In this document: in pieces, positions 5,327 to 59,500 of the stretch
How positions within the stretch are numbered: the first letter of the stretch is position 1
Layout: the number at the start of each line of letters is the position of its first letter
Virus record (IMG/VR): IMGVR_UViG_3300009550_000009
Source: a virus
Direction: 5' to 3' (one strand)
Length of the DNA: 64,000 nucleotides
The notes under the pieces: generated by a model
Told to the model about the DNA's origin: nothing
Databases searched by the model: none
The model's input: only the letters and a program-made list of their open reading frames with translations
Made by a program: the position numbers and the translations under genes

Positions 5327-7633
5327 ATGGCGACTCCTCAATTATCTCCCGGCGTATTGGTCAGAGAGGTTGATTTAACAGTAGGAAGAGCAGATAATGT
5401 ATTAGACAATATCGGCGCAATAGCGGGCCCATTTCGTCTTGGCCCAATTGATGAACCCATTCAAGTATCAAATGAAGAGGAGTTAATCAAAAATTTTGGT
5501 AAACCACTTTCAACTGATAGGCAGTATGAATATTGGATGAGTGCAGCATCATTCTTATCATATGGTGGTGTATTAAAGGTAGTAAGAGCAGACGATGATG
5601 ACTTAGGTAATGCTAACGCTGGTGTTGGTATTGCATCTACAACTGTCATTGGTGGATCAGGTGGTTTAAAAATAGAAAACTATGATGATTATCAGCAAAA
5701 TCATGTTGCCGATACAAGTTTCTATTATGCTGCTAAAACTCCGGGTTCTTATGCTAACGGATTAAAGGTTTGTCAGATCGATGATCAAGCAGATCAAATA
5801 ATCGGAATCAATACAACAAGTTTAGAAGATTACGGTGCAACAATTGGTGTCGGTGTCACAGCAGCATTAACTAATGTTGTCATACCGGGTGCAGGATCAA
5901 CTGCAACATTCACTGGACATCTGAAAGGAATCATTACAGGTGTGGCAACAGATGCTACAAATGGTGATTCAAAAATTGATGTTAAGATTACTGCAAGAGT
6001 ATCAAGTGCCGGAACAGAATTTAAAATAGATTATGCACAAAATTCACTAACCAACTCATTTAAAACAGTAACTGAAGGTGGTGGAGCAGGAATTGCAGCA
6101 ACAACTGTATTCTTTGTGAATAGTTCAGGTATTAACACTGGTGCACCGAACGCACCAATCACAGCTGCATCTGCAGAAATTGTAACAGCAGTAGATTGGT
6201 ATGATCAACAAACTCTAGGATTAGAAAACTCAACTATTTTCTGGAAAACACTTGCACCTAGACCAGTATCTAATAAGTATACACTTGATAGAAATGGTAA
6301 GAACGATGGTATTCACGTTGCAGTCATTGATGATGCTGGAACAATAAGTGGTGTTCAAGGTAATGTTCTTGAGAAACATCTTAACTTATCTAAAGCACAT
6401 GATGCCATCTCGAATGTAAATTCTCCAGAAAAAATTTACTATAAGCAATATCTTGCAGATAGATCAGAAAATCTTTATGCTGGATTTAATCCATCACAAT
6501 CACAAGATGCTTTCCATAAAACTGCTGCTGGATCATTCCAAGAACCAAGAGCAACAGGATTCTCAACAGGATTTGTTGCAAATACAACTGCTCAAGGTTT
6601 GTGGAGTCAAAATGCTCAGAATAATACATTCGCAGCCATAGGTAATGTAACTTACAACCTTGGTGGTGGAACAGATTACACTAGCGTTTCTGGTGCAATT
6701 CCTGCTCCCGGAGCAAATGGTGGAATGACTGCTACGCTCTCTGATCTTAAAACAGCGTATGACACACTTTCAAATAAAGATGAACAGGCAGTTGATTTTA
6801 TAATCATGGGGCCTGGTCTTGGATCTAGAGATTTATCTCAAGCAAAAGCAAATCATGTAATCTCAATTGCAAATGCAAGAAAGGATTGTATTGCTACTGT
6901 TGGGCCACATAGAGATGATCTTGTTAACATATCCAACACAACAACACAAACAAATAATTTAATACAATATTTCAGTCCATTAACCTCATCATCATATTGT
7001 GTGTTTGATAGTGGTTACAAATATATGTTTGATAGATTCAATAATGAATTTAGATTCATTCCTGCTAATGGAGACACTGCCGGATTGATGGTTCGCACAG
7101 CGGTCACTTCATTCCCATGGTTCTCACCTGCTGGTGAACAAAGAGGTGTGTTGAATAATGCTATTAAATTAGCATATAACCCAACCAAAGCACAGAGAGA
7201 TATACTTTATCCTCAAAGGGTTAACTCTTACATAACCAAACCGGGAATCGGAACATTATTATTTGGTGATAAAACTGGATTGTCATTTGCATCTGCATTC
7301 GACAGAATCAATGTTCGTCGTTTATTCCTCACTGTGGAACAAGCACTTGAAAGTGCTGCTGAAGCACAACTCTTTGAGTTGAATGATGAACTAACAAGAG
7401 CAAACTTTAGAAATATTGTTGAACCGTTCTTGAGAGATGTTGAAGCAAAACGAGGAATATCAGGATTCCTAGTTATTTGTGATACATCAAACAACACTCC
7501 TGATGTTATTGATAATAATGAATTCAGGGCTGACATCTTCCTGAAACCAGCAAGATCAATCAACTTCATCACACTAACATTCGTTGCCACTAGAACTGGA
7601 GTTAGTTTTGAAGAAGTCGCAGGTCGAGTTTAA
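5327..7633 (+). CDS. gp18: tail sheath protein gp18
   Basis: LSPGVLVREVDLT N-terminus; PWFSPAG, FDRINVRRLF, IFLKPARSINFITLTF. Confidence 0.98.
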   Translation: MATPQLSPGVLVREVDLTVGRADNVLDNIGAIAGPFRLGPIDEPIQVSNEEELIKNFGKPLSTDRQYEYWMSAASFLSYGGVLKVVRADDDDLGNANAGVGIASTTVIGGSGGLKIENYDDYQQNHVADTSFYYAAKTPGSYANGLKVCQIDDQADQIIGINTTSLEDYGATIGVGVTAALTNVVIPGAGSTATFTGHLKGIITGVATDATNGDSKIDVKITARVSSAGTEFKIDYAQNSLTNSFKTVTEGGGAGIAATTVFFVNSSGINTGAPNAPITAASAEIVTAVDWYDQQTLGLENSTIFWKTLAPRPVSNKYTLDRNGKNDGIHVAVIDDAGTISGVQGNVLEKHLNLSKAHDAISNVNSPEKIYYKQYLADRSENLYAGFNPSQSQDAFHKTAAGSFQEPRATGFSTGFVANTTAQGLWSQNAQNNTFAAIGNVTYNLGGGTDYTSVSGAIPAPGANGGMTATLSDLKTAYDTLSNKDEQAVDFIIMGPGLGSRDLSQAKANHVISIANARKDCIATVGPHRDDLVNISNTTTQTNNLIQYFSPLTSSSYCVFDSGYKYMFDRFNNEFRFIPANGDTAGLMVRTAVTSFPWFSPAGEQRGVLNNAIKLAYNPTKAQRDILYPQRVNSYITKPGIGTLLFGDKTGLSFASAFDRINVRRLFLTVEQALESAAEAQLFELNDELTRANFRNIVEPFLRDVEAKRGISGFLVICDTSNNTPDVIDNNEFRADIFLKPARSINFITLTFVATRTGVSFEEVAGRV

Positions 7634-7664
7634 TTGAATAAATAACTAAAGGAGATTAACAACT

Positions 7665-8255
7665 ATGGCAACAACTAGAGAAAACAAAACCATTTCTCAA
7701 TTTAAATCTCAATTAATTGGTGGTGGAGCAAGACCGAATCTGTTTGAGGTAGAGATGGCAACTTTACCTCCGGGCATAGCATGGCCTGCAGATAACTTTA
7801 GGTATATGTGCAAAGCAGCACAGTTACCAGCATCAGTTATTGCAAACATTGATATACCATTTAGAGGTCGTATTTTTAAAGTCGCTGGAGATAGAACCAT
7901 TGAACCATGGAGTATCACAGTTATTAATGATGAAGACTTTAGAATTAGAAAAGCAATGGAAGAATGGGTTGATACAATTGCTAAATTAGAAAATAATTTA
8001 GGTGCAACCGATCCAAGTGCATATATGGTTAATGCAAAAGTATTCCAATTAGGTAGAGGATCTGTTCCAAGTTCACAAAATAACGCTGGTGACAGAAATA
8101 CAGTTTTAAGAGAATATGAGTTTATCGACATATTTCCAACAAGTGTATCATCAATTGACCTATCTTACGATTCTTCTGATACAATAGAAGAGTTCGTAGT
8201 TGATTTCGCAGTTCAGTCATTCCAGTTTATTGACGCAGGGGGCATTGACGGTTAA
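7665..8255 (+). CDS. gp19: tail tube protein gp19
   Basis: GGARPNLFEV, FRGR..KVAGDRT, follows gp18. Confidence 0.97.
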   Translation: MATTRENKTISQFKSQLIGGGARPNLFEVEMATLPPGIAWPADNFRYMCKAAQLPASVIANIDIPFRGRIFKVAGDRTIEPWSITVINDEDFRIRKAMEEWVDTIAKLENNLGATDPSAYMVNAKVFQLGRGSVPSSQNNAGDRNTVLREYEFIDIFPTSVSSIDLSYDSSDTIEEFVVDFAVQSFQFIDAGGIDG

Positions 8256-8280
8256 CTAAATAGATAAAAAGTAATAAATT

Positions 8281-9951
8281 ATGTCTAAATTATTTGGGTT
8301 CTCGATTGAGAACACAGAACCACTATCTCCAAATGTAGTATCTCCAGTCCCTGAAAATAGGGAAGACGAGTCAGACTACTTTATGAGTAGTGGTTTTTTT
8401 GGTTCTTATGTTGACATTGAAGGTGTATTTAAAACTGAATTTGATTTAATAAAAAGATATCGTGAAATGAGTCTGCATCCAGAAGTGGATAGTGCCATTG
8501 AAGATATTGTAAATGAAGCTATAGTTTCTGATACAAATGATCATCCAGTTGAAATTGATCTAGATCATTTAAATGCAAGTGATGGTATTAAAAAGAAAGT
8601 AAGAGAAGAATTTAAATATATTCTTGATTTATTGGATTTTGATAAAAAAGCACATGAGATATATCGTAATTGGTATATTGATGGTAGAATCTATTACCAC
8701 AAAGTAATTGATATTAAAAAACCAGAAGAGGGTATTCAAGAATTAAGATACATAGACGCAATCAAAATGCGTTATATAAGACAAGAACAAAAATCAAAAG
8801 AGGACAAATATAAAGTAAACAATCTTTTATCAGATAATCCTACTGATTATCCCTTTCCAAAGATAGAGGAGTATTTTGTTTATAATCCAAAAGCCGCATA
8901 TCCAACTGGTAACATTCAAGCAAGAGGTGCATCTCAAGGAATTAAAATGTCAAGAGATTCAGTCTCTTATTGCACATCTGGTTTAGTAGATAGAAATAAA
9001 GGAACTACATTATCATACTTACACAAGGCTATCAAATCACTTAATCAATTACGTATGATTGAGGATAGTTTGGTGATATATAGATTATCCCGCGCTCCAG
9101 AGCGTAGGATTTTCTACATTGATGTAGGAAACTTGCCGAAGATCAAAGCAGAACAATATCTCAGAGATGTGATGATGCGATATCGAAACAAATTAGTTTA
9201 CGACGCTAACACAGGAGAGATCCGCGATGACAAAAAGTATATGGCGATGCTTGAAGATTTCTGGTTGCCTAGAAGAGAAGGAGGGCGTGGAACTGAGATT
9301 TCTACTTTACCGGGAGGTCAAAATCTCGGAGAGATCACGGACATCGAATACTTCAAGAAAAAACTCTATAGATCGCTCAATGTCCCGCCGTCGAGAATGG
9401 ATGGCGAAGGAGGATTTAACTTGGGACGATCTTCAGAGATACTGAGAGATGAGTTAAAATTTACTAAATTTGTTGGACGTTTGAGAAAAAGATTCTCAAA
9501 TATGTTCCATGATATGTTACGCACTCAACTAATATTAAAGAACATTATTACCCCAGAAGACTGGGAAACAATGAGTGAGCACATACAATATGACTTTTTA
9601 TATGATAATCACTTCTCTGAACTCAAAGAATCTGAGTTATTAAATGAGAGATTAGGTAACGTTGCAACAGCAGAACCATATATTGGAAAGTATTTCTCAC
9701 AGGATTATGTAAGACGTAAGATACTTAGACAAACTGATGAGGATATCATAGAACAAGATAAATTAATTAAACAAGAAATTGCGAGTGGTGCAATTCCAGA
9801 TCCAAGTATTCCTGTTGATCCACAAACAGGTTTACCAATGGATCAAGCTGGATCTACAGGAGATCTTGGTGCACCAGTTCAAGAACCAGATCTAGAATCT
9901 GAAGGTGGTGCAACAGAAGCACCCACTATCCCTAGTGGTGGGGAAATATAA
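8281..9951 (+). CDS. gp20: portal vertex protein gp20
   Basis: YRLSRAPERRIFYIDVGNLP, EDFWLPRREGGRGTEI. Confidence 0.98.
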   Translation: MSKLFGFSIENTEPLSPNVVSPVPENREDESDYFMSSGFFGSYVDIEGVFKTEFDLIKRYREMSLHPEVDSAIEDIVNEAIVSDTNDHPVEIDLDHLNASDGIKKKVREEFKYILDLLDFDKKAHEIYRNWYIDGRIYYHKVIDIKKPEEGIQELRYIDAIKMRYIRQEQKSKEDKYKVNNLLSDNPTDYPFPKIEEYFVYNPKAAYPTGNIQARGASQGIKMSRDSVSYCTSGLVDRNKGTTLSYLHKAIKSLNQLRMIEDSLVIYRLSRAPERRIFYIDVGNLPKIKAEQYLRDVMMRYRNKLVYDANTGEIRDDKKYMAMLEDFWLPRREGGRGTEISTLPGGQNLGEITDIEYFKKKLYRSLNVPPSRMDGEGGFNLGRSSEILRDELKFTKFVGRLRKRFSNMFHDMLRTQLILKNIITPEDWETMSEHIQYDFLYDNHFSELKESELLNERLGNVATAEPYIGKYFSQDYVRRKILRQTDEDIIEQDKLIKQEIASGAIPDPSIPVDPQTGLPMDQAGSTGDLGAPVQEPDLESEGGATEAPTIPSGGEI

Positions 9952-9954
9952 ATA
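9947..9954 (+). promoter_or_regulatory. T4-type late promoter TATAAATA
   Basis: Exact gp55 consensus 30 nt before ORF 9984. Confidence 0.75.
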
Positions 9955-10220: not shown

Positions 10221-10222
10221 CC

Positions 10223-11559: not shown

Positions 11560-12687
11560 ATGTCTCGTGGCACAAAATTACAAGAAATGGAAGTAAAGAC
11601 ACAGCAATCTAAATCCGCTGTCAATGCTAACGCCAAGCCAGGCGATCCAATGCCAAAACTTACAACAGGTGGAACACCACCAACATATGAAGATCTCGGA
11701 GGGCCAACTCCTGAGAATTATAGACCAGATGATGATTCGGCAAAAATCAAAGAGCCAGGCGGTTCCCTTAAACAAGTTAAGGATGTCGTTAACAAAGGTG
11801 CTAAAGGAGCAGACCCCATGAAGTCCGGTGGGAAAGGTTACAAGGAGGAAGAAGAGGTGGAACTCGAAGACCAGCAAGAAATTGTTTCTGAAGATGACGC
11901 TGCTACCGAAGAGGAAGTAGTTGCAGAAGAAGATCAAGTAACCGAAGAGCAAGTTGAAACTTATGACATCGATGATGATGTCAAAGCTTTACTTGGAGGA
12001 GAAGAACTCTCTGAAGAGTTTAAAAACAAAGCAAAAACAATCTTTGAGACTGCGCTCAAGTCTAAAGTTGCCGAAGTAAGGTCACTTTTAGAGCAGCAAT
12101 ACGAGGAAAAACTCGGACAAGAGATTGTTGAAGCAAAAGAGGAACTCTCAAGTAGAGTTGACTCATATCTTGAGTATGTCGCTGACGAATGGTTTACTGA
12201 AAACCAGTTAGCAGTAGAGACAGGACTCAAAGAAGAACTTACAGAATCATTCCTTGGTGGAATGAAAAGTCTTTTTGAAGAACATTATGTATCAATCCCT
12301 GAAGATAAATACGATGTGCTTGAGAGCATGGTAGAAAAACTTGATGACATGGAAACAAAACTCAATGAGCAAATTGAGAAGAATATTGGATTAAACAAAC
12401 GTCTCGCAGAGTCGGTTGCCGATGGTATTCTTGATGAAGTTTCTGAAGGGCTCGCGTCCACACAGAAAGAGAAGCTCGCTTCACTTGCCGAAAGTGTAGA
12501 GTTTGAAAGTGAATCCGAATATCGTGAGAAGCTAGAGGTTTTAAGAGAATCATATTTCTCTTCAAAATCAACACCTTCATCAGCTAAAACTGAAACTTTA
12601 TCTGAGGGAGTAGATAGTTCACCTGAATCAGTTCAGGGTTCTATGAGTGCATACCTGAAAACACTTTCAGCATTTAGCAAAAACTGA
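11560..12687 (+). CDS. gp22: prohead core scaffold protein gp22
   Basis: Acidic coiled coil with LSEEFKNKAKTIFE and VDSYLEYVADEW; between gp21 and gp23. Confidence 0.95.
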   Translation: MSRGTKLQEMEVKTQQSKSAVNANAKPGDPMPKLTTGGTPPTYEDLGGPTPENYRPDDDSAKIKEPGGSLKQVKDVVNKGAKGADPMKSGGKGYKEEEEVELEDQQEIVSEDDAATEEEVVAEEDQVTEEQVETYDIDDDVKALLGGEELSEEFKNKAKTIFETALKSKVAEVRSLLEQQYEEKLGQEIVEAKEELSSRVDSYLEYVADEWFTENQLAVETGLKEELTESFLGGMKSLFEEHYVSIPEDKYDVLESMVEKLDDMETKLNEQIEKNIGLNKRLAESVADGILDEVSEGLASTQKEKLASLAESVEFESESEYREKLEVLRESYFSSKSTPSSAKTETLSEGVDSSPESVQGSMSAYLKTLSAFSKN

Positions 12688-23343: not shown

Positions 23344-25474
23344 GCATAAGCATGTAGAGACAGCGCAGTTCAATGTCCAGACTCGCGTATTGATTCTGCC
23401 TCTTTGGGAGAAAGCAAGTAATTCTGTATATGATATGTTGGTAGCGCATGAAGTTGGGCATGCGTTATTTACACCTAATGAAGATTATAGAGACAAAGTA
23501 AAAATACCTTTTGATTTCATAAATGTTTGCGAAGATGCTCGTATAGAGAAGTTGATGAAGCGTAAGTATCAGGGTCTTCCAAAAACATTTTATTATGGAT
23601 ATAGTGATCTTCATGATGATGATTTCTTTAATGTAGTAGATGTTGATTTTGAAAAATTTAATCTTGCTGATAAAGCAAATCTTCATTTCAAGATTGGTAA
23701 TTTTATTGATATAACATTTACATCAAAAGAGAAGGAGATTATTGACGAGATTGCTAACACAGAAACTTTTGATGAAGTTCTTGTAGTATCAGAGAAGTTA
23801 TATAATTACTGCAAGGAGAATATGGAGGAGCAGAAGAAGCAAGTTCAAGATCTTGATCTTCATATGACTCCACAAACAGGACAACCAGAATCTCCAGAGT
23901 CATCTGATAGTAATGATGATGGTGAGTTAGAAGAAGTTGATCAGCAAGTCACTCAATCAGAAACTAAACCACAAAATGATTTTGGTTCAGATGAAGGTGG
24001 TGATATGGTTACACCAGAGGATGAGCAATCTGATTCTCCTTATGATCCTGATTCTTCAGAACCACAAGTTGCAACTGCAGAAGAGTTGGAGAAGAGTTTA
24101 AAAGATTTAATTGCAAGTCATGATGGTAGAGAGAATATCTATGTTGAATTACCTGATGTTAAACTTGACAAAATTATTGAATCTAATAGTGATGTTCATG
24201 ATGTTATCGAAAAACATTTTGCATGGGAGTGGAGTAGAATTAAAGCAGATAGAGAGAAGAATGGATATTCATGTGTTGCAAATCCATTTGAAGAAATTGA
24301 TTCTGAATTTAATAATTTTAAAAAGAATGCAAGAAAGGAAGTTAATTATCTTGTTAAAGAGTTTGAGTGTAAGAAAGCTGCATCTGCATATGCTCGTGCT
24401 GCAGTAGCTCGCACTGGTGTATTGAATACATCAAAACTTCATACTTATAAGTTCAATGAAGATCTTTTCAAAAAAGTTACCATATTACCTGATGGTAAAA
24501 ATCATGGATTAGTATTCATTCTTGATTGGTCAGGATCAATGCAATATATCTTACAGGATACTTTAAAGCAACTTTATAATTTAATTTGGTTCTGCAGAAA
24601 AGTAAATATTCCCTTTGATGTATATGCTTTTTCAAATGAATTCAAACGTGATGAGGGTTGGGGTTATTCTCATAATTATGATACTGTTGCCTATGAGAAG
24701 AGAGAGAACATAATGGCAATTGATAGTTGTTTTTCTCTTATGCATTTTTTCTCAAGTGATATCAAAGGAAAAGATCTTGAACAACAAATGCTTAACATAT
24801 GGAGAGTTGCATCTTTATTCAGAGTATGGGGTCATGTAACTTATCCACGTAGACTTGCATTATCAGGAACGCCATTGAACGAATCATTAATCACTCTACG
24901 TCAAATTCTTCCAGAGTTCCAAAAGAAACATAACCTTGAAAAAGTTCAGTGTATTGTTCTTACTGATGGTGAAGCTGGGCATCTCTCATATCATGTGGAG
25001 GTTAAACGTTCTTGGGAAGATGAACCATACATGGGAACACGCGGTATCGTTCCCGAAGCGACATTTATACGTGACCGTAAACTTGGTTGTAATTATAAAA
25101 TTGGTTATAGATATACAGATTTTACAGATACTATTCTTCAAAATCTTCAAGATCTATTTCCAACAGTAAACTTTATCGGTATTCGAGTTATCGTTCCTAG
25201 AGCTGCATTATCTTTTGCAAGACATTTTACAACTGATGAAACAAAGTTAAATGTGATTGAGAAAGATTGGAAAAAAACAAAAAGTTTCAATATTGTTGAC
25301 TCTGCTTATGATGCATATTTTGTAATGTCATCAGTAAATCTTAATGACAATTCAGATTTTCAAGTAAAGGAAGATGCTACCAAGTCGCAGATTAAATCAG
25401 CATTCGTTAGATCACTCAAGACAAAAAAACTAAATAAAAAAGTATTGGGCGAATTTATTTCTTTAGTGGTATGA
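23276..25474 (+). CDS. metallopeptidase-VWA (CobT-like) protein
   Basis: HEVGH zincin motif, EDARIE, acidic linker, LDWSGSM MIDAS, GTPL, LTDGE; ATG 23276 follows CAGGA. Confidence 0.88.
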   Translation: MAVQYEIKSQLAKLLATEDLIVEHKHVETAQFNVQTRVLILPLWEKASNSVYDMLVAHEVGHALFTPNEDYRDKVKIPFDFINVCEDARIEKLMKRKYQGLPKTFYYGYSDLHDDDFFNVVDVDFEKFNLADKANLHFKIGNFIDITFTSKEKEIIDEIANTETFDEVLVVSEKLYNYCKENMEEQKKQVQDLDLHMTPQTGQPESPESSDSNDDGELEEVDQQVTQSETKPQNDFGSDEGGDMVTPEDEQSDSPYDPDSSEPQVATAEELEKSLKDLIASHDGRENIYVELPDVKLDKIIESNSDVHDVIEKHFAWEWSRIKADREKNGYSCVANPFEEIDSEFNNFKKNARKEVNYLVKEFECKKAASAYARAAVARTGVLNTSKLHTYKFNEDLFKKVTILPDGKNHGLVFILDWSGSMQYILQDTLKQLYNLIWFCRKVNIPFDVYAFSNEFKRDEGWGYSHNYDTVAYEKRENIMAIDSCFSLMHFFSSDIKGKDLEQQMLNIWRVASLFRVWGHVTYPRRLALSGTPLNESLITLRQILPEFQKKHNLEKVQCIVLTDGEAGHLSYHVEVKRSWEDEPYMGTRGIVPEATFIRDRKLGCNYKIGYRYTDFTDTILQNLQDLFPTVNFIGIRVIVPRAALSFARHFTTDETKLNVIEKDWKKTKSFNIVDSAYDAYFVMSSVNLNDNSDFQVKEDATKSQIKSAFVRSLKTKKLNKKVLGEFISLVV

Positions 25475-25956
25475 TCACATTCAAAGAATTCATGCAAGAG
25501 AGCAGTCTCTCTCGTATAAAAAGTAAATCAGATAAGAGTGGTATAGCAACTCTTTCGGGTGATCGTGGTGACAAATCAAGGAAAGAAAATCAAGCAAGAT
25601 CAAAACAATTGCAAAAAGATATTCGTGGTAAGTTTGGTAGAGGGCCAACTAAATTAAAGGGATCATATTTAGAAAATCCCGGTTCAAAAGATGAGAGAAA
25701 AGTAAAAGAGAAAAGTTATGCAATAGATCGTGGTAAGATGGGTAAAAGAAAATTCAAGAAAGAAGTTAAGAAGTTGGGTAAGAAGTATGGGCAGGATTCC
25801 GTATTAACACAAACTAAAAAAACTGCTACACTACATAGAACAAGAAAAGGTGGATTAGATAAAAAAGGAGAAAATGTCGGTAGGTTTAAACCACAAGGTA
25901 AAAACCCATACGGTCAATCACAAGTTAAAGGTAAAACTTTCGCATATGGAGATTAA
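25471..25956 (+). CDS. basic hypothetical protein with CTS-like leader MITFKEFMQE
   Basis: ESSLSRI..GSYLE..E.SY..KKYGQDSVL pattern of T4-like phages. Confidence 0.75.
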   Translation: MITFKEFMQESSLSRIKSKSDKSGIATLSGDRGDKSRKENQARSKQLQKDIRGKFGRGPTKLKGSYLENPGSKDERKVKEKSYAIDRGKMGKRKFKKEVKKLGKKYGQDSVLTQTKKTATLHRTRKGGLDKKGENVGRFKPQGKNPYGQSQVKGKTFAYGD

Positions 25957-32373: not shown

Positions 32374-32615
32374 CCAAATTCACAAAACTAAAACATCAAG
32401 TAAAATCAAACAAATATTATCTGTTCTGGGGTGCTTGCACTATTGCAGTCATGGTAGGACAAATTTATGTTGGCAATGGATATCGTAAAATGTCAGAAAC
32501 TGGTGATGCAATATCCGCTGATATTAATTTATTAATAGAGGTTTTGACCATGCCTTCCGAAAGACAATTTTACTCCGAACCTGAACAACCATTTAAAATG
32601 CCTATCATACAATGA
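32370..32615 (+). CDS. hypothetical membrane protein
   Basis: Coupled ORF with one hydrophobic helix. Confidence 0.65.
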   Translation: MTKFTKLKHQVKSNKYYLFWGACTIAVMVGQIYVGNGYRKMSETGDAISADINLLIEVLTMPSERQFYSEPEQPFKMPIIQ

Positions 32616-33739
32616 TTATCAGTGAAGCAGATGCTACATGGGCTGCTAATGAATTTATTGATTACTTTGGTAGATTTGAAACTATTGAAGACTATATTCG
32701 TTTTACAAAAGAGGCAGCAGTTAAAGAAAGAGGTAAATCAATTGTTTCTCTAAAAGATGAATTCTTCAATGAAGATGTTCATCCAGAGGACATGGATTTT
32801 GAGGTTAAGTTTGTTGGAGATAGATTTCAACAATCTGTTCCTCAAGCATATTATCATGAACTTTTAACTGCAACATCATCTGCAATCATTGAGAAAAATA
32901 TTCCCGGTAGAGAGTTGCGTTGGATAGTATATGAAAAGAATAGTAAGAAGATAATTGGATTCATTCGCTTTGGATCTCCTACGATTAATTCTAAACCAAG
33001 AAATGAATGGTTAGGTCAACCAGCAAATCTTTCTATATTTAATCGCCATGCAGTGATGGGTTTTGCAATCGTTCCATCCCAACCATTTGGATATAATTAT
33101 CTTGGCGGTAAATTACTTGCCTTACTATGTGTATCTCATTTTGCAAGAGAGCATCTTAATGTGGTATTTGAAAAAGATATTGGATGGTTTGAAACAACCT
33201 CTTTATATGGATCTACAACTTCTGCATCACAGTATGATGGTCTAAAACCTTTTATTAGATTTAAAGGTTTAACTGATAGTAAATTTCTTCCTTTATTGCA
33301 TGATAGAGCATTTCATAAATTGCATGATAGATTCACTGTAATTAATGATAATAATCCTGTAACTCCTACTTATGTTTCATCTAAAAAGATGAAGAGACAA
33401 ACTAGAATGATTTCATGGACTAAGAATTCATTGAAAGAATATGGACAAGTAGAAAAACTAAAAAAGTTGGATGGAGTTCTTAAGAATGCATTTAAACTTA
33501 CACAAAGAAAGAGATCATATACTTCTGATTATGGTTATGGTAATGTTCGTGAAGTATTACTTGGTAAGCAAGATAAATTAGTTCGTGGTCAAAACTGGGA
33601 TAAGTTCTATCTTGATAATATTATTTCATGGTGGAAGAAGAAAGCTGGTAAAAGATATGAAAAGTTAAAGTCTGAGGGTAGGTTTAGAACTGAGGTCGAA
33701 CTCTGGACAGAAGATCAAGATATTCAAATTATAAGATAA
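32612..33739 (+). CDS. DUF4338/DruA-like protein
   Basis: PGRELRWIV..IGFIRFGSP..PRN..IVPSQPFGYNYLGGKLLALL..TTSLYG..SQY. Confidence 0.65.
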   Translation: MIISEADATWAANEFIDYFGRFETIEDYIRFTKEAAVKERGKSIVSLKDEFFNEDVHPEDMDFEVKFVGDRFQQSVPQAYYHELLTATSSAIIEKNIPGRELRWIVYEKNSKKIIGFIRFGSPTINSKPRNEWLGQPANLSIFNRHAVMGFAIVPSQPFGYNYLGGKLLALLCVSHFAREHLNVVFEKDIGWFETTSLYGSTTSASQYDGLKPFIRFKGLTDSKFLPLLHDRAFHKLHDRFTVINDNNPVTPTYVSSKKMKRQTRMISWTKNSLKEYGQVEKLKKLDGVLKNAFKLTQRKRSYTSDYGYGNVREVLLGKQDKLVRGQNWDKFYLDNIISWWKKKAGKRYEKLKSEGRFRTEVELWTEDQDIQIIR

Positions 33740-34553: not shown

Positions 34554-35261
34554 TTGAAAAAATTTATTTTTGACATTGACGGCACTCTCACACCGAGTCG
34601 TCAACAAATGGATATGTCTTTTATGGCATGGTTTATTATCTTTGAATGTAATCATCCAGTTTATCTTGTAACCGGAAGTGATAGAGAGAAGACTATAGAC
34701 CAAGTTGGTTTAGATGTTTATAATAGAGCAAAGAGAGTTTACAATTGTGCAGGTAATGCGATCTATGAAAAAGATAAACTTGTCTATCAAAATCCTTGGG
34801 TTCTATCTAATGATGCCAAAAAATTTTTATTAGAAGAGTTGGAACAAAGTTCATTTCCAATCAGAACAGGAACTCATATAGAAGATAGGCCTGGATGTGT
34901 AAACTTTAGTATTTTAGGAAGAGGTGCAAACTGGGAAGAAAGGCAAACATATAAAGAATGGGATAAGGAAAAGAATGAAAGAGTTGGTATTGCAAGAAGA
35001 TTTAATAAAAAATTTCCTGATCTCTATGCGTTTGTCGGTGGAGAAACAGGAGTTGATATATCATCAAAAGGTAGTGATAAGGGACAAATCATAAGAGATT
35101 TTTCTTTTGAAGATGACATACATTTTTTTGGTGATAGAATGGACAAAGATGGTAATGATTATCCTTTAGCACAAGAGGTTGACAAAAGAGGAGGAATCAA
35201 TTATCATGTGAACAGTTGGCAAGATACTAACAAGAGATTGCTTGAAATACTTGACATCTAA
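34554..35261 (+). CDS. HAD-IIB phosphomannomutase (eukaryote-type PMM family)
   Basis: FDIDGTLTPSR, VTGSD, IE.R...NFSILGR, GGETGVDI, FFGD...GNDY. Confidence 0.8.
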   Translation: MKKFIFDIDGTLTPSRQQMDMSFMAWFIIFECNHPVYLVTGSDREKTIDQVGLDVYNRAKRVYNCAGNAIYEKDKLVYQNPWVLSNDAKKFLLEELEQSSFPIRTGTHIEDRPGCVNFSILGRGANWEERQTYKEWDKEKNERVGIARRFNKKFPDLYAFVGGETGVDISSKGSDKGQIIRDFSFEDDIHFFGDRMDKDGNDYPLAQEVDKRGGINYHVNSWQDTNKRLLEILDI

Positions 35262-35279
35262 ATAAACTCATACTATAAT
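35251..35279 (+). promoter_or_regulatory. consensus sigma70 promoter
   Basis: TTGACA-17 nt-TATAAT. Confidence 0.85.
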
Positions 35280-35363
35280 AAGTATATCGCAGATTTTTTC
35301 ACAGGTTGAAGGAGGACGCTCGTAACAATACGCAAATTGTAAATCCTATTACCAATTAATAAC

Positions 35364-36668
35364 ATGCCTAATCGTAAGCAAAGACGACAAATTAAAAGAC
35401 TTTTTAAGAGAGTCACAAATATATTACTTAGAAAAAAAGATCCATATAATAAAAATCTCTGGGATCTGTATAATACATTTCACAACCTCTTCGTAGCACC
35501 AGATGATTTTCAAAGACCCTTATCTTGGGGCCCTGAACAAAAAGTAAAATACTTTGATTCTATTTTAATGAATAGAGTTGAAGGAACAATAGTAGTTGTT
35601 AATGCGCCAAAAGCACTTGCAGCACTCAAAAGATATGGTAACAAAAATGCTGGATGTAGCAGCATATCAAAAGCGATAGAACTTTTTGAAAAAGAGATTG
35701 CTAAAGGTAAAAAGTGGATAGTTATTGATGCAAACAATCGTTTAGATTTTATTTGCAACTTATTAGCAGATAACTATGCTATACCAGAGGGTGAGTATGA
35801 ATTTATTCCTGATGCAGACGACAACTTCTCCGGTTCATTTGTTGTTGACAAAACAAACAACAGATTTTCATTACTATCAGATTTGGTGCAAGAGGCTATC
35901 AAAAGTAGAGTCACTGTAATTAGCGAATACGTGCAAACAGATTGGCAAGGAATGTCCATTGCCTTTATTAACACAAATAATATGGTTGCACCTAATGAGC
36001 AAGAAATCAGAAATGCTTTTTACTCTGAATGGCCTGAATACGTTCGTAACCTTCGTAAGCACAATATTGATCTTTTAAGTTTAGTATTTACAAAAGATCC
36101 TGTGAAAAGATATTGTGGTGATGAGTTTCTTCTAAACTGCATTGCTCTGGATAAATCTTGTATCGTTGAAACTGAAACTCTTAATGAGTTTTCAGCAAAA
36201 GTTAATGAAGGAAAAGAAGATAAAGAGGAAAAGTTAAAGATTAACGTGGCATGCAAAGCTTTAACTCAAAAAGTCAAAGATGACATATACATCTCTGAAT
36301 TTGATGAGGATGAAACAGAATATTATGAAAGAGTCTTTATGCATCTTTATGATAATATTCGTAAAATGCAAAAGAATAACGTGCCATTCAATGCAACACA
36401 ATCACTTATACAAAATTTGTTTTGGTTAATGTGTAATGGAATCGATACCTATCAAGAGTTTGAGTTAGCAGTTAAGTATCATCAGGATGCGTATAATGAT
36501 GCGAACATAACTTATTCTGAGGATGCAGCAACATTCAGAAATGCTTGTTCTGGTTCCACTAAAAAGAATATTGAGTTTCGTTACATAATACTATCTCGTA
36601 TAGTAGAGAGGGTAAAGTTAGAAACTCTTATTACTCCAATGAATGAGACCATGAACATAGAGGTTTAA
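35364..36668 (+). CDS. DUF262/ParB-like N-terminal domain protein
   Basis: PDDFQRPLSW..YFDSIL..VIDANNRL..FINTN..N.QEIRNA parallels DUF262 (QR..W / DGQQR / F..IN / E.RNA). Confidence 0.6.
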   Translation: MPNRKQRRQIKRLFKRVTNILLRKKDPYNKNLWDLYNTFHNLFVAPDDFQRPLSWGPEQKVKYFDSILMNRVEGTIVVVNAPKALAALKRYGNKNAGCSSISKAIELFEKEIAKGKKWIVIDANNRLDFICNLLADNYAIPEGEYEFIPDADDNFSGSFVVDKTNNRFSLLSDLVQEAIKSRVTVISEYVQTDWQGMSIAFINTNNMVAPNEQEIRNAFYSEWPEYVRNLRKHNIDLLSLVFTKDPVKRYCGDEFLLNCIALDKSCIVETETLNEFSAKVNEGKEDKEEKLKINVACKALTQKVKDDIYISEFDEDETEYYERVFMHLYDNIRKMQKNNVPFNATQSLIQNLFWLMCNGIDTYQEFELAVKYHQDAYNDANITYSEDAATFRNACSGSTKKNIEFRYIILSRIVERVKLETLITPMNETMNIEV

Positions 36669-36709
36669 TCGGTTAACCGTATATGGAGTGCCAACCGTAT
36701 ATCAAAATT

Positions 36710-46025: not shown

Positions 46026-47477
46026 ATGGCTGATTCACCCAAATTATCAGAATCATCACAAGCATTATTTTGTGCTGTTGTTGATTATTTGGGTAAACCA
46101 ATTAATGGTAGAAATAGACCGGCAAATTATCCTGCTTTTAAAAGAGAATATGGATCAATAATTAATAGAGTAAAAAACAAAGTTAAAACTGGATCTGTTT
46201 CAGTGTCAAGTATTGAAAGATATTTAACGGAGAATAAAGACTGGTATGACTCATCAATTAATATAGCGAATGAACTTTTTAATGCAACAGCAAAAATATC
46301 TAGAAAAACTTACAATAGAATAAAACCAAAAGGAATAAGTTTGTTTTATATTAGAGGTGATAAAGGCACGAGAGATATCATGAGTGACATTGCACTTATT
46401 TGGAAATATACAAATACTGCTGTAAAAAAAAGAAACAGATTAGAAGGGATAAACGATTTAACATTTAACGATATAAACAAGTGGAGTCCAGCAGATATCT
46501 ATCTTGCCTCTCAAAAAGGTAGGATGGTTATAAGACAATTAGCCTCTGGAAAAGTAATGGGTAGTGGAATTAAAATTGGTAAAACAAATATTGATTCACT
46601 TACTGCTATGACAAGTTTTTCAGTATTGAACGCTTTATTAAAACAAATGATGGAGAATGGTGACATACTGCCACTGTCTTTAAAGAAAGCACCTAACAAG
46701 GATAGCGTTGTTATAAAAACAATAAATTTTATGGACAATGATGTTGCGAATGCTTTGAAAAAAAATGATATTAGATATCACGGTTATATATTTTCACAAA
46801 CACAGGACGTATTCAACTCAAAAGATGTTTATATTAAGATAACTACAGGCCCTTTTAAGTTGCAATTCAGAGATAAGGGTGGAACTGGTGGTGGACAAAA
46901 ACCCACTTTTTCTTATCAGTGTATAATATCTGGAGGAAAACAAGCTCTTGATGGTAGTCTTGCAGGTGATTCGATAGGTAATGTTATATTTCAAACAAAC
47001 CAATCTTTAGGAAGACAATTCTCTTCAGCAAGTCAGAGTAGAATAATAGACTCAGCTTTTAAGATTGCAAAAAATATGCAAAAAGAGATAGATGTTGATG
47101 GGGTTCTATCTAAATCAATAGAAAATACTATTTGTAGAAAAGTATATGAATATGCGGTGAAATACTCTAATACCGCGATAGGATCAATAAAATCCTTTTA
47201 CGAAGAATTAGTTAATCATCCTCAGTTTTCGAGGGGTGGCACATCTATCATGGTCAAGGAAGATGGTGGTAAGGTGAGACTTGAGAGTGAACTTTTAGTT
47301 GAAAGAGCAAGAACACAATTTTTATTTGGAAAGTTTATGGGTGGTAGATTGATAGAGGGCATGGAGAGATCAAAAAAAGACGCTGATGAAATAGCGATAA
47401 ATTTATTATTATATGCAGGATCAAGAACGGCTAAATCATCACCCCATGTTAAAGCATCTGATATCTCATCATTGTAA
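46026..47477 (+). CDS. hypothetical protein, possible PD-(D/E)xK-like nuclease
   Basis: 483-aa ORF; N-terminal E helix, KWSPADIY and PLSLKK motifs. Confidence 0.5.
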   Translation: MADSPKLSESSQALFCAVVDYLGKPINGRNRPANYPAFKREYGSIINRVKNKVKTGSVSVSSIERYLTENKDWYDSSINIANELFNATAKISRKTYNRIKPKGISLFYIRGDKGTRDIMSDIALIWKYTNTAVKKRNRLEGINDLTFNDINKWSPADIYLASQKGRMVIRQLASGKVMGSGIKIGKTNIDSLTAMTSFSVLNALLKQMMENGDILPLSLKKAPNKDSVVIKTINFMDNDVANALKKNDIRYHGYIFSQTQDVFNSKDVYIKITTGPFKLQFRDKGGTGGGQKPTFSYQCIISGGKQALDGSLAGDSIGNVIFQTNQSLGRQFSSASQSRIIDSAFKIAKNMQKEIDVDGVLSKSIENTICRKVYEYAVKYSNTAIGSIKSFYEELVNHPQFSRGGTSIMVKEDGGKVRLESELLVERARTQFLFGKFMGGRLIEGMERSKKDADEIAINLLLYAGSRTAKSSPHVKASDISSL

Positions 47478-54404: not shown

Positions 54405-55359
54405 TTCTAAGTATATTGGATTAGTATCATCAAGACTACAAAAATTCAAAAGAGTTAAATCTGATCTGTATAATTTCAGATGCCCGATTTGTGGTGACTC
54501 AAAAAGAACTAAAAGTAAAACGAGAGGATATCTCTATGCAATTAAGGCAAATGTAAATTTCAAATGTCATAATTGTGGTGCTTCAATGTCTTTGAGTAAT
54601 TTTTTGAAGAAGATAGACCCTGTTGTTCATAAACAATATGCTTTTGAAAAATTTAAGGACGGTCATACTGGTCGTAACTTTGTTGTTGAAGAACCAAAGT
54701 TTGAATTTAAAGCACCAGTTTTTAAACCCAAACTAAATTTACCAAAGGCAATTGATAATCCAATTGCAAAAAAATATCTAGAAAAAAGAAAGTTAAACCC
54801 ATCTGAATTTTATTATACAGATACATTTAAGAAGTGGGTAAATACTTTAGTCTCTAAATTTGATGATGTAACTTATGATGAACCACGAATAGTAATTCCT
54901 TTAATATATGAAAACAATCTTATAGGAATACAAGGAAGGTCTCTAGGCCCTAATTCTGTTAAATATATTACTATCATGTTAGAGGAGGATGCTCCCAAAA
55001 TTTATGGACTCGACAAAGTTAACAAAGAAAAATCAATTTATATCATTGAAGGCCCTTTCGATTCCTCCTTCGTGGAGAACTCGGTTGCTATGTGCGGTTC
55101 CGATCTTGATGTTCGGTCGTTTGGTTGGAGCGATTATATTTGGGTTTTTGATAATGAACCACGTAACAGAGAAATCGTCAATCGAATCTCCAAAACCATC
55201 GATAGAGGAGATAAAGTGGTAATTTGGCCTAGTAATATTGTTGAAAAAGACATAAATGATATGGTGATGAGTGGACAAGATGTAATGAGCGTGTTAGAAT
55301 CTAATACATATTTTGGTTTAGAAGCAAAACTTAAATTTAATACTTGGAAAAGAATATGA
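54391..55359 (+). CDS. gp61: DNA primase gp61
   Basis: CPICGDS..CHNC Zn finger, IEGPFDS, FDNEPRN, KDINDM. Confidence 0.96.
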   Translation: MDQVDSKYIGLVSSRLQKFKRVKSDLYNFRCPICGDSKRTKSKTRGYLYAIKANVNFKCHNCGASMSLSNFLKKIDPVVHKQYAFEKFKDGHTGRNFVVEEPKFEFKAPVFKPKLNLPKAIDNPIAKKYLEKRKLNPSEFYYTDTFKKWVNTLVSKFDDVTYDEPRIVIPLIYENNLIGIQGRSLGPNSVKYITIMLEEDAPKIYGLDKVNKEKSIYIIEGPFDSSFVENSVAMCGSDLDVRSFGWSDYIWVFDNEPRNREIVNRISKTIDRGDKVVIWPSNIVEKDINDMVMSGQDVMSVLESNTYFGLEAKLKFNTWKRI

Positions 55360-57650
55360 GCAACGGAACTAAAGTTGTTAAAAGAGATGGTTCAATTGAA
55401 CTACTCGATCTAGAAAAGATGCATGTCATGGTCGAAGAGGCATGTAAAGGTCTTGGAGGGGTCTCTGCGAGTCAAGTTGAGATACAATCTGGCATACAGT
55501 TCTATGATGGTATTACCACTGCTGAAATTCAGGAAATACTGATCAAATCTGCTAGTGATTTAATATCTACTGATAATCCTAACTACCAATTTGTTGCTGC
55601 TAGACTATTATTGTTCTCTGTAAGAAAAAATTTGTATGGTGGTGTTCGTGATTTACCTCATTTAGAAAATCACATTTACAGTTGCACAAATATTGATGTA
55701 TATGATAAAGACATTTTTAACAAATATTCTAAGGAGGAGATTGACAAGGCTAATGGTTTCCTTGACCATAGCCGCGATTTTCTATTCACATATGCAGGAC
55801 TTCGGCAAGTGGTCGATAAATATCTTGTGCAGGACAGGAGTGGTGGAGGTGTTTTTGAAACACCACAATTCATGTATATCATGATTGCCCTGACAATATT
55901 TGCAGAATATCCAAAAGAAACCAGACTTAACTACGTAAAAAGATACTATGACGCAATCAGTAAACACAAAATCAACATCCCAACACCAATTATGGGAGGT
56001 GTCAGAACACCTCTTCGTCAATTTGCATCTTGCGTTTTGGTTGATATTGATGACACCCTCGATAGTATCTTTAGCAGTGATATGGCTATTGGCAAGTATG
56101 TCGCACAAAGGGCTGGTATCGGTATTAACGCAGGGAGAGTCCGTGGTATCAACAGTAAAATCAGAGGCGGAGAGGTTCAACACACAGGTGTCATCCCCTT
56201 CCTTAAAAAATTTGAATCAACTGTCAGATGCTGCACTCAAAACGGGATCAGAGGCGGTTCAGCTACTGTCCACTTTCCAATCTGGCATCAAGAAATTCAA
56301 GACATCATTGTTCTCAAAAACAACAAAGGCACGGAAGACAACCGAGTAAGAAAGTTAGATTATAGTATTCAATTAAGTGCTTTATTTTATCAAAGATTTA
56401 TTGATGATGGAGAAATAACTTTATTCTCTCCTCATGATGCACCCGGACTTTATGATGCTTTCGGAACTGATTCTTTTGATGAACTTTATGAAAACTATGA
56501 GAAGAGTGATATACCAAAAACCACTGTAGGTGCACAGAAATTAATTCTTGATCTTTTAAAAGAGAGAGCAGAGACTGGTCGTATCTATATTATGAATATT
56601 GATCATTGCAATAGTCATAGTTCTTTCAAAGATAGAGTGACTATGAGTAATCTTTGTCAGGAGATTACTTTACCCACATATCCACTACAACATATCGATG
56701 ATCATTTGGGTGAGATTGCACTTTGTATCCTATCTGCAATTAATGTTGGTAAGGTTCAATCTGATAAAGAATTAGAAGATTTATGTGATTTATCTGTCCG
56801 TGCACTAGAGGAGTTGATTGATTATCAAGATTACCCTGTAAAGGCAGCAGAGATCGCTACAAAGGCAAGAAGATCACTTGGTGTAGGATTTATAGGTCTA
56901 GCACATTATTTGGCAAAACTTGGGTTCAAATATGACTCTCAAGAGGCATGGGATGCTGTTCATAGTTTATCAGAATCTTTTCAATATTACCTTTTAAAAT
57001 CATCTAATCAGTTAGCAATTGAAAAAGGCCATTGTGAAAACTTCGGAAGAACAAAATATTCAGATGGAATACTTCCAATTGATACATATAAGAAGGATGT
57101 AGATGAAATTAGTAATTTAGAGTGTCAGCATGATTGGGAATCTCTTAGGTCATCTATCTTGGAGCACGGTCTCAGGCACTCAACATTGTCCGCACAAATG
57201 CCTTCGGAGAGTAGTTCCGTTGTGTCAAACGCAACAAATGGAATTGAACCTCCTAGAGCATACTTGTCCATTAAAAAATCAAAGAAGGGGCCTCTTAAGC
57301 AGGTTGTTCCATCTTATGGAAGTCTAAAAAACAATTACACTCTTCTTTGGGATATGCCTGATAATACCGGATATATTAACATAGTTGCAGTAATGCAAAA
57401 GTTTTTCGATCAAGCAATCTCTGGAAATTGGTCATACAATCCAGAGCATTTTGACGACTCTGAAGTTCCGGTTAGTGTGATGGCACAAGATTTATTAACA
57501 ACATACAAATATGGTTGGAAGACATCCTATTATCAAAATACTAATGATATGAAAACTGATGATGTAGAATCAGATAAACCTGATATACTAGACTTGATTA
57601 ACGAAATAGACGACGCAAACGAAGAGGAGTGCGAATCCTGTGCAATTTAA
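55356..57650 (+). CDS. nrdA: class Ia ribonucleotide reductase alpha
   Basis: ATP cone VVKRDG, PTP, ASCVL, SNLCQEI, MPSESSS, C-terminal CESCAI. Confidence 0.98.
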   Translation: MSNGTKVVKRDGSIELLDLEKMHVMVEEACKGLGGVSASQVEIQSGIQFYDGITTAEIQEILIKSASDLISTDNPNYQFVAARLLLFSVRKNLYGGVRDLPHLENHIYSCTNIDVYDKDIFNKYSKEEIDKANGFLDHSRDFLFTYAGLRQVVDKYLVQDRSGGGVFETPQFMYIMIALTIFAEYPKETRLNYVKRYYDAISKHKINIPTPIMGGVRTPLRQFASCVLVDIDDTLDSIFSSDMAIGKYVAQRAGIGINAGRVRGINSKIRGGEVQHTGVIPFLKKFESTVRCCTQNGIRGGSATVHFPIWHQEIQDIIVLKNNKGTEDNRVRKLDYSIQLSALFYQRFIDDGEITLFSPHDAPGLYDAFGTDSFDELYENYEKSDIPKTTVGAQKLILDLLKERAETGRIYIMNIDHCNSHSSFKDRVTMSNLCQEITLPTYPLQHIDDHLGEIALCILSAINVGKVQSDKELEDLCDLSVRALEELIDYQDYPVKAAEIATKARRSLGVGFIGLAHYLAKLGFKYDSQEAWDAVHSLSESFQYYLLKSSNQLAIEKGHCENFGRTKYSDGILPIDTYKKDVDEISNLECQHDWESLRSSILEHGLRHSTLSAQMPSESSSVVSNATNGIEPPRAYLSIKKSKKGPLKQVVPSYGSLKNNYTLLWDMPDNTGYINIVAVMQKFFDQAISGNWSYNPEHFDDSEVPVSVMAQDLLTTYKYGWKTSYYQNTNDMKTDDVESDKPDILDLINEIDDANEEECESCAI

Positions 57651-58824
57651 AATTTCATCAACAGAATCAAAACCAATGGCAGAAGTTAAGGGTATGACTG
57701 TGTTCAACACAAAAGATGTTGACACTAAGAAACAACCCATGTTTTTTGGACAACCATTAGGTGTTCAAAGATATGATAACTTCAAATATCCACAGTTTGA
57801 AAATTTAACTAAACAACAACTTGGATATTTTTGGAGACCAGAAGAGGTGTCTCTACAAAAAGACCGTGGTGATTACCAAACATTACGTCCAGAACAGAAG
57901 CATATCTATACTTCTAACCTAAAGTATCAGATCATGCTTGACTCAGTTCAAGGTCGTGCACCCGGAATGGCATTTTTGCCATACTGTTCATTACCAGAAC
58001 TTGAAGCATGTATGGAATGTTGGTCATTTATGGAAATGATACACTCACGTTCTTACACTTATGTAATTAAGAATGTCTATTCTGATCCATCTGAAGTATT
58101 TGATACAATCATTAATGATCCAAGAATACTAGAACGTGCTGCAAGTGTTACAGGTTCTTATGATGACTTTATCAACGAGGCACATGAGTATGATACTGGA
58201 AATCAATGGAAATCAGAGAACAAAGGTTCTTATCTGAGAGATTATACAAGAAAAGAATTAAAAAGAAAACTTTATAGGGCAGTCGCTAATGTCAATATTT
58301 TGGAAGGTATCCGCTTTTATGTATCTTTCGCTTGTAGTTTTGCTTTTGGTGAGCTTAAACTCATGGAAGGATCTGCGAAAATCATATCTCTTATTGCAAG
58401 AGATGAGAATCAGCATCTGGCAATAACACAAAACATTTTAAATAATTGGAGAAAGGGTGATGATCCAGAGATGCAACAGATTATGAAAGAGGAAGAAGAG
58501 TGGACTATATCAATGTTTGACAAGTGTGTTAATGAAGAGAAAGCATGGGCAAAGTATTTGTTCAAAGATGGTAGTATGATTGGTTTAAATGACAAACTAC
58601 TTCATCAGTATGTTGAGTGGGTATGTAATCGTAGATTAAGATCGATTCATCTTAAACCACAGTATGATATTCCTGCAAGAAACAATCCATTACCTTGGAC
58701 TGAGCACTGGATATCTTCAAAAGGATTGCAGGTTGCACCGCAGGAGACAGAGGTTGAATCTTATGTTGTGGGCGGAATAAAACAAGATGTCAAGAAAGAC
58801 ACATTTAGTGGGTTTAAACTGTAG
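57640..58824 (+). CDS. nrdB: class Ia ribonucleotide reductase beta
   Basis: FWRPEEV, EMIHSRSY, EGIRFY, RDENQH, APQETE. Confidence 0.98.
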   Translation: MQFKISSTESKPMAEVKGMTVFNTKDVDTKKQPMFFGQPLGVQRYDNFKYPQFENLTKQQLGYFWRPEEVSLQKDRGDYQTLRPEQKHIYTSNLKYQIMLDSVQGRAPGMAFLPYCSLPELEACMECWSFMEMIHSRSYTYVIKNVYSDPSEVFDTIINDPRILERAASVTGSYDDFINEAHEYDTGNQWKSENKGSYLRDYTRKELKRKLYRAVANVNILEGIRFYVSFACSFAFGELKLMEGSAKIISLIARDENQHLAITQNILNNWRKGDDPEMQQIMKEEEEWTISMFDKCVNEEKAWAKYLFKDGSMIGLNDKLLHQYVEWVCNRRLRSIHLKPQYDIPARNNPLPWTEHWISSKGLQVAPQETEVESYVVGGIKQDVKKDTFSGFKL

Positions 58825-58857
58825 GAAGTAGACTAGATAGTAATAATCTATCTAATC

Positions 58858-59070
58858 ATGGATGCACTCTCATGCCCTTGGCCTGATCCTTTTTACAGAA
58901 CTTATATGAACGGAAGACTTAAAAAAATTGACATGGAATCAAGACTTCTTAAAATTAAAAGAGGTCTTGACGAACACTCTTGGTATCCAGAGTGGAATGA
59001 TACTCAAAGAGGTGCTGCACAACGCATACTAAATAATGCGTTAGAAGTGCTTCATGAGTATGACTATTGA
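58858..59070 (+). CDS. hypothetical protein
   Basis: ORF coupled to the next gene. Confidence 0.6.
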   Translation: MDALSCPWPDPFYRTYMNGRLKKIDMESRLLKIKRGLDEHSWYPEWNDTQRGAAQRILNNALEVLHEYDY

Positions 59071-59500
59071 TTATGAAAATCCCTGGCTATATAAAGGTTC
59101 AAATTTCTCTTCTAATGATATTGGCGATTTCTTCGGTTACGTCTACATCATTACAAATAATAAGAACGGTAGGGAATATATCGGACGTAAATATTTTTGG
59201 CAGTTCAGAACTCCTAAAGGTAAAAAACGAAAAGTAAAATCAGAATCTGATTGGAAGAAGTATTATGGGTCTTGTCCGGAACTTAAAGAAGAAATTGGAC
59301 GATTGGGTAAACAAAATTTTAGTCGAACTATCTTATCATTACATTATACAAAGGGCAAAACAAACTACGAAGAAACCAGACAACTCTTTACGAACAGGGT
59401 TCTTACGGAGCAGCTTGACGATGGAACCCCAAAATACTACAATAGCAACATACTCTCAAGATATTTTAGAAAAGATTACTATGAAGGGAACATCGACTGA
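59054..59500 (+). CDS. short GIY-YIG-like nuclease
   Basis: GYVY.ITN...REYIGRK..YYGS..E..YYN. Confidence 0.75.
   Translation: MSMTIDYENPWLYKGSNFSSNDIGDFFGYVYIITNNKNGREYIGRKYFWQFRTPKGKKRKVKSESDWKKYYGSCPELKEEIGRLGKQNFSRTILSLHYTKGKTNYEETRQLFTNRVLTEQLDDGTPKYYNSNILSRYFRKDYYEGNID

Follow-up and report, generated by a model that had tools for sequence, protein, structure and literature searches.

The DNA analyzed here, a 64-kb window of the IMG/VR virus record IMGVR_UViG_3300009550_000009, was studied for one feature: the near-complete loss of the pentanucleotide CCWGG, together with the two-base flank common to its few surviving copies. The window has a G+C content of 35%, and its long open reading frames (ORFs) all lie on the + strand. 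It contains a structural block (tail sheath, tail tube, portal, protease, scaffold and major capsid genes) matching T4-like cyanomyoviruses, the isolate closest to this block being Synechococcus phage SynMITS9220M01, with approximately 75% nucleotide identity. Pfam matches among the other genes are terminase, UvsW, gp44/gp45, DNA polymerase B, UvsX, gp41, ribonucleotide reductase, a cobS-like gene and sugar-nucleotide genes. According to these genes, the window is part of a marine T4-like cyanomyovirus, whose genome, judged by the size typical of such phages, is probably 170-250 kb long.

A near-identical IMG/VR record of 72,674 bp (G001) aligns to positions 1-37,953 of the window at 98-99.5% identity and reaches 36.2 kb farther upstream. 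This 36.2-kb upstream part, joined to the window, gives a 100-kb pan-sequence, in which all 68 CCNGG sites were classified. Expected motif counts were derived from dinucleotide shuffles and from synonymous-codon shuffles within 84 window genes, and related sequences were surveyed at 318 loci with the total length of 3.4 Mb. The scan of metagenomes with the capsid protein yielded one sister contig (L082). The genome walk with the terminase and the last epimerase gene produced no contigs of the same lineage, the best matches being 86-87% identical and carrying other signatures.

CCWGG occurs in the window five times, the expected number being 43.8 +/- 6.8 under dinucleotide shuffles and 40.3 +/- 4.1 under synonymous-codon shuffles. 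The depletion is due to synonymous codon choice: Pro preceding Gly is encoded by CCS in 33 cases and by CCW in four, while at other positions 87% of Pro codons are CCA or CCT. The recount recovered exactly the coordinates at which the sequence-only reading of this DNA had placed the survivors (6812, 11638, 11755, 34890 and 59082). With their flanks, these sites are the following:

6810..6816, + strand: surviving GGCCTGG, tail sheath gene; codons ATG GGG CCT GGT (MGPG)
11636..11642, + strand: surviving AGCCAGG, scaffold gene; codons AAG CCA GGC (KPG)
11753..11759, + strand: surviving AGCCAGG, scaffold gene; codons GAG CCA GGC (EPG); relatives show a coupled synonymous change here
34888..34894, + strand: surviving GGCCTGG, phosphomannomutase-like gene; codons AGG CCT GGA (RPG); G001 shows a coupled synonymous change here
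59082..59088, + strand: surviving CCTGGCT (opposite strand AGCCAGG), small ORF; codons AAT CCC TGG CTA, where CCC-TGG-CTA encodes Pro-Trp-Leu

All five survivors (gggCCTGG, aagCCAGG, gagCCAGG, aggCCTGG and CCTGGct) are RGCCWGG on one strand. Four of them are in-frame Pro-Gly pairs preceded by the codons GGG, AAG, GAG and AGG, just as the sequence-only reading had reported. Its claim that every survivor overlaps an RGCY motif is likewise borne out, the overlap being of the RGCC/GGCY type at all five sites and also at two more in the upstream part of G001, both GGG-CCA-GGT (GGCCAGG). In total, G001 has five CCWGG sites and neither GTAC nor GGWCC.

According to the tetranucleotide frequencies of the window itself, the chance of RG before CC is 0.047, and that of CY after GG is 0.037. 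The probability of an RG/CY flank is therefore 0.082 per site, and approximately 4e-6 for five sites of five. The 35 CCSGG sites of the window provide an internal control: not one of them is preceded by G or carries an RG/CY flank (Fisher's exact test against the five flanked CCWGG sites, 1/658,008). On the 100-kb pan-sequence, the CCNGG sites are distributed as follows:

RG/CY-flanked: W 7, S 0
flanked only by a 3' C with a purine after it: W 0, S 4
unflanked: W 0, S 57

Hence, all seven flanked sites are W and all 61 remaining sites are S (Fisher's exact test for flanked versus not, approximately 1e-9), so that no CCWGG outside the overlap is left on the 100 kb. The sequence-only reading had proposed listing the flanks of further CCWGG sites as a check, and this listing over 100 kb contains no site without an RG/CY flank.

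The four sites of the second class bear on the nature of the flank. Three of them lie in the window:

5348..5354, + strand: control Pro-Gly CCCGGCG, 3' C followed by a purine, rare CCC codon
7770..7776, + strand: control Pro-Gly CCGGGCA, 3' C followed by a purine, rare CCG codon
31448..31454, + strand: control Pro-Gly CCCGGCA, 3' C followed by a purine, rare CCC codon

The fourth is situated upstream of the window, in the G001 part, and also has a rare S codon. Given the frequency of CCA and CCT at Pro codons not followed by Gly, four S sites of four have a probability of approximately 3e-4 under neutrality. The use of rare CCC and CCG here means that a neighbouring C alone gives no protection, and that the second flank base matters. 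The requirement for R or Y is also visible within the G/C-flanked sites, where the seven RG/CY-flanked ones are all W and the four flanked only by CR are all S (Fisher's exact test, 1/330). A rule based on the flanking G only, as expected from a GpC-type mask, is ruled out for this phage by the four CCSGGC-purine sites with their rare codons. Thus, flank-conditional survival of CCWGG is real, and it specifies RGCC, that is, one strand of RGCY, and not merely an adjacent G.

Sites with the permissive flank are not depleted. In the codon shuffles of the window, RGCCWGG and CCWGGCY together are expected 3.7 times and observed five times, while all other CCWGG sites are expected approximately 36 times and observed never. 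Three other causes of the pattern of survivors were considered and rejected: chance on statistics, amino-acid constraint because CCS synonyms exist, and recent origin because the survivors are conserved in relatives 85-99% identical to the window.

The purge is common only to a small clade, comprising loci L001-L003 (85-93% portal identity) and L082 (90% capsid identity). SynMITS9220M01 was dropped as an additional sample for the flank rule, since its CCWGG count (56 versus 45 expected) shows that the purge is not shared. The only CCWGG sites at the clade loci are homologues of those at 6812 and 11638. The former is GGG CCA GG in L001 and GGG CCT GG in G001, and the latter is AAG CCA GGC in L002 and L003 and AAG CCT GGC in L082. 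These switches between A and T at conserved survivors amount to drift within a tolerated state.

At two other sites the flank and the core change together. The site at 11755, GAG-CCA in the window and in G001, is replaced by GAA CCC GGT in L002 and L003 and by GAG CCC GGT in L082. The site at 34890, AGG-CCT in the window, has AGA CCG GGA at the corresponding codons of G001. Coupled synonymous changes have occurred twice independently, with one intermediate, GAG-CCC in L082. The forbidden state, an A-ending codon followed by CCW-GG (e.g. GAA-CCA), was never seen among the relatives compared. Neutral behaviour of the flanked survivors is thus seen in their undiminished number, their drift and their covariation with the flank base.

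These data also bear on an explanation by kinetics or by coincidence, in which host methylation of CCWGG on phage entry is faster at RG-flanked sites, or the small sample misleads. Flanking bases are generally known to affect how fast methyltransferases act, and the independent sites number only seven. However, chance is excluded both at the level of approximately 1e-9 and by the two covariation events, and a kinetic preference, which has no direct support, predicts graded rather than all-or-none protection. We therefore consider this explanation highly improbable.

The phosphomannomutase-like gene that contains the 34890 site is a locally divergent allele, clearly less conserved in its middle part; mean column identity along its full length is 91%. 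It is adjoined by an ORF at 35364-36668 (region 35250-36709) with a weak match to GmrSD_N/DUF262, which is missing from the 98-99% identical G001, where 42 bp stand in its place. The allele and this ORF look like a mobile or recently exchanged cassette.

CCWGG is not the only purged motif. In codon shuffles of the window, GTAC is expected 127 times and GGWCC 35 times, and neither is observed; accordingly, Gly before Pro is encoded by GGS in 31 cases of 31, compared with 12% GGS elsewhere. Further motifs with zero counts in the window are TTCGAA (16 expected), CYCGRG (8.8), ACTAGT (7), CACGTG (6.3), RGCGCY (7.8) and GACGTC (3.8). Several of the purged motifs correspond to the sites of classic cyanobacterial enzymes (AvaI, AvaII, AsuII).

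In GTAC, GGWCC, TTCGAA, ACTAGT, CACGTG, RGCGCY and GACGTC no cytosine can be placed in RGCY, and each of these motifs has no survivors. CYCGRG can overlap RGCY, yet less than one masked site is expected. Consequently, CCWGG is the sole abundant purged motif able to overlap RGCY, and it is the sole one with survivors.

The set of purged motifs is variable among relatives. GTAC is retained in the sister clade (L001-L003, L082; 85-93% identical), with observed/expected (O/E) ratios of about 0.45-0.73, so the GTAC purge is recent and lineage-specific. Moreover, the code limits the choice, as Gly-Pro holds either GGWCC or GGCC, and Pro-Gly holds either CCWGG or CCGG, so that every cyanophage lineage is obliged to settle on one motif for purging. 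Indeed, surveyed loci with no GGWCC have normal GGCC counts, and GGCC-avoiding loci retain GGWCC. Total purges differ from one cyanomyovirus to another: CTAG (0 versus 686) and TTCGAA (0 versus 61) in record G005, CCGG and GCGC (0 versus 321 each) in P-TIM40, and CCGG (1 versus 299) in Syn9, with GGCC and AGCT depleted in nearly all cyanomyoviruses compared. In general terms, this is the familiar avoidance of restriction sites in phages, with short palindromes (GTAC, GGWCC, CCWGG, TTCGAA, CYCGRG and others) wholly or almost wholly lost by synonymous recoding and relatives purging other motifs. The difference is that here avoidance is tied to a two-base flank, and the residual sites form a defined neutral class rather than random leftovers. 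No published description of flank-dependent site avoidance was found in the literature search.

The best hypothesis for the survivors, plausible and unproven, is that they are masked by an overlapping cytosine modification of the RGCC/RGCY type, to which we assign an even chance. Hosts of this lineage would carry a restriction enzyme cutting CCWGG, as well as enzymes for GTAC, GGWCC, TTCGAA, CYCGRG and other sites, and the phage would escape them by synonymous recoding, encoding Pro-Gly as CCS-GGN in place of the preferred CCW-GGN. In addition, phage DNA would bear a sequence-specific modification on the C of RGCC, in the simplest form an N4-methylcytosine (m4C) RGCY motif. In a CCWGG site following RG, or preceding CY (on the other strand), the outer C would be the modified base. 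Such a hemi-modified site would not be cut on both strands; being selectively neutral, it would retain the preferred CCA or CCT and drift freely.

Neutrality, drift, covariation and the confinement of survivors to RGCY-overlapping motifs are all as predicted by overlapping methylation. The biochemical precedent is that m4C at one outer C of CCWGG abolishes cleavage of that strand by MvaI while the other strand is still cleaved, yielding a nick (PMC1874612). Together with the blocking of other enzymes by overlapping dcm sites, this example resembles the present case in that a methyl group of foreign specificity protects only the overlapping sites. It differs in that such blocking is known as a laboratory nuisance or a biochemical fact, and here it would have left an evolutionary footprint in a phage genome.

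The proposed motif also has a natural counterpart. Among the methylated motifs of marine viral metagenome-assembled genomes, RGCY is the commonest; myovirus-like genomes there have the m4C motifs RGCY, CCWGG and GGWCC, variously combined and seldom in common with prokaryotic metagenome-assembled genomes, and carry 2.2 methyltransferase genes on average (PMC8919816, Seong et al. 2022). The virus type and the habitat are the same as here, RGCC is one strand of RGCY, and the two other motifs, CCWGG and GGWCC, are both purged in our window. On the other hand, those viruses methylate CCWGG and GGWCC, and the lineage considered here avoids both; methylation was measured there and not tied to avoidance, while in our case it would be deduced from avoidance, and no methyltransferase gene was found.

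A series of observations weighs against this hypothesis, at least in the form of a phage-encoded RGCY methyltransferase. Since in CCWGG the modified C is invariably followed by a second C, the flanks constrain RGCC only, and not RGCT. The Pfam search of the 41 window ORFs of at least 150 amino acids found no DNA methyltransferase of either the C5 or the N4/N6 type, nor did the PHROGs rescan of ten ORFs, including all nine without a Pfam match. PF00145 and PF01555 were searched for in the 72.7-kb G001, and neither was found. Two complete relatives lack both families, and a phage methyltransferase is thus not to be assumed.

A further point is provided by a gene of the S-adenosylmethionine (SAM) lyase family (161 amino acids; E-value 2.5e-18, 66.7 bits versus the cut-off of 28):

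25471..25956, + strand: SAM-lyase-family ORF (Pfam PF23780)

This gene may have an anti-restriction function. The cyanomyovirus record G007 contains a PF01555 methyltransferase together with a SAM-lyase-family gene, so SAM lyase does not exclude methylation.

Moreover, RGCY itself is depleted two- to four-fold (AGCT 55 versus 182 expected, AGCC 18 versus 69, GGCT 47 versus 77). The O/E ratios, 0.28-0.30 for AGCT and about 0.26-0.45 for AGCC and GGCT, resemble those of relatives and show no relaxation. GGCC requires a correction, as 36 of its 48 sites in the window sit in GGSCC, a context forced by the GGWCC purge. Outside GGSCC, 14 sites are observed on the pan-sequence, compared with approximately 56 expected by composition (85 minus 29), giving O/E of approximately 0.25. 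Such depletion is unexpected under full RGCY protection, and could be a relic. The PF01555 methyltransferases of cyanophages were rejected as a source of RGCY tolerance, since Syn9 and P-TIM40 carry the gene and have an RGCY O/E ratio of 0.19.

The claim of the sequence-only reading that an RG(m)CY methyltransferase masks the sites is therefore upheld in part: survival is conditional on the RGCC flank, but RGCT cannot be derived from it, and the search for a cytosine methyltransferase elsewhere in the genome, covering approximately 100 kb, found none. An enzyme like M.CviJI, whose specificity it had named and whose product is 5-methylcytosine (m5C), is not indicated, given the absence of PF00145, in the sequence available, from the window ORFs, from G001 and from the records of five relatives, and m4C is at least as likely. 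M.CviJI of chloroviruses (RGCY, m5C) and relaxed variants of M.HaeIII (GGCC to AGCC; PMC3526282) do resemble the proposed modifier in that they modify the C after G, which is the outer C of an overlapping CCWGG, but no C5-methyltransferase domain was found in the 100 kb searched, and RGCC is derived from CCWGG flanks alone. Thus narrowed to RGCC, the reading is consistent with RGCY.

Two other ORFs of the window are one of 375 amino acids at 32612-33739, beside the clamp-loader genes, with a weak match to the Druantia protein DruA (PF14236, E-value 4.9e-8), and one of 483 amino acids at 46026-47477, which has no Pfam match and whose PHROGs matches are to families of unknown function only.

We infer that the mask is a base modification; both its chemistry and its maker, either a phage gene outside the 100 kb or a host enzyme, are to be read with the same reserve. 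It is possible, if doubtful, that the RGCC(Y) modifier is a novel methyltransferase, is encoded elsewhere in the genome or is a host enzyme, in each case not recognizable in the 100 kb. If the modification were conferred by the host, progeny DNA would be the substrate of an RGCC/RGCY (or relaxed GGCC) methyltransferase of the usual host, either solitary or linked to restriction. This would agree with the failure to see a phage methyltransferase in 100 kb, and the avoidance of RGCY across cyanomyoviruses suggests that systems of the RGCY/GGCC type are common in hosts; GGCC methylation by solitary enzymes is indeed widespread in cyanobacteria. However, the SAM-lyase-family gene of the phage would be expected to lower host methylation, and viral motifs including RGCY are rarely shared with prokaryotic metagenome-assembled genomes (PMC8919816). 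On balance, a host-conferred mask seems improbable.

Other cyanomyoviruses follow a broader form of the flank rule. Among the first 243 surveyed sequences, there are 3,090 CCWGG sites, 22% of them G/C-flanked and 5.9% RG/CY-flanked. At loci L235, L137 and L158, all CCWGG sites (25/25, 15/15 and 11/11, respectively) are GCCWGG or CCWGGC, mostly CCW-GGC, irrespective of R or Y. CCGG is absent from these three loci, which leaves them no escape through CCS; GGCC is avoided by L158 too. The cultured phage P-TIM40 (NC_028663.1) shows a partial form of the rule, with 96 of 177 CCWGG sites (54%) G/C-flanked. No G-flanked CCGG is left in L235, L137 and L158, which counts against general GpC methylation and keeps enzyme-intrinsic flank specificity alive. 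Such specificity is possible in this virus group, and this too speaks against masking. Jointly with the RGCC(Y) reading of the window, the tolerance of GCCWGG/CCWGGC may tentatively be ascribed to a GCC-type modification or to an undescribed 7-bp specificity HCCWGGD in marine picocyanobacteria.

Applied to the window, this alternative states that the purging enzyme has an extended specificity, so that CCWGG flanked by RG (or CY) is not its substrate, and no modification is involved. It accommodates the G/C-flanked sites of L235, L137, L158 and P-TIM40, which methylation explains poorly, and agrees with the lack of a methyltransferase in 100 kb of phage sequence and with unrelaxed RGCY. However, the enzyme would need to exclude a dinucleotide that lies to the left or right of the core and extends two bases beyond it, and we know of no restriction enzyme that reads its site by excluding such a flanking dinucleotide. 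Moreover, the rule differs (RG here, any G elsewhere), so that one would have to postulate no fewer than two unusual enzymes, and RGCY is a documented methylation motif of marine myoviruses (PMC8919816). Overall, we regard extended specificity as unlikely. As the rules differ between lineages and the one observed here matches a documented viral methylation motif, modification is ranked first for this phage.

If overlapping modification is indeed the cause, this phage joins two routes of escape from restriction, recoding and masking, and the restriction sites left in it are not noise but can be read for the bases that are modified. More generally, we tentatively suggest that the DNA-modification specificity of a phage can be read from flank-conditional site survival without methylation data, in this case an RGCC(Y) cytosine modification. 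P-TIM40, as a cultured phage of Prochlorococcus NATL2A with a related G-flank bias, offers an experimental entry point. For uncultured marine phages known only by sequence, both methylome specificities and the opposing restriction enzymes would then become inferable, which could guide testing.

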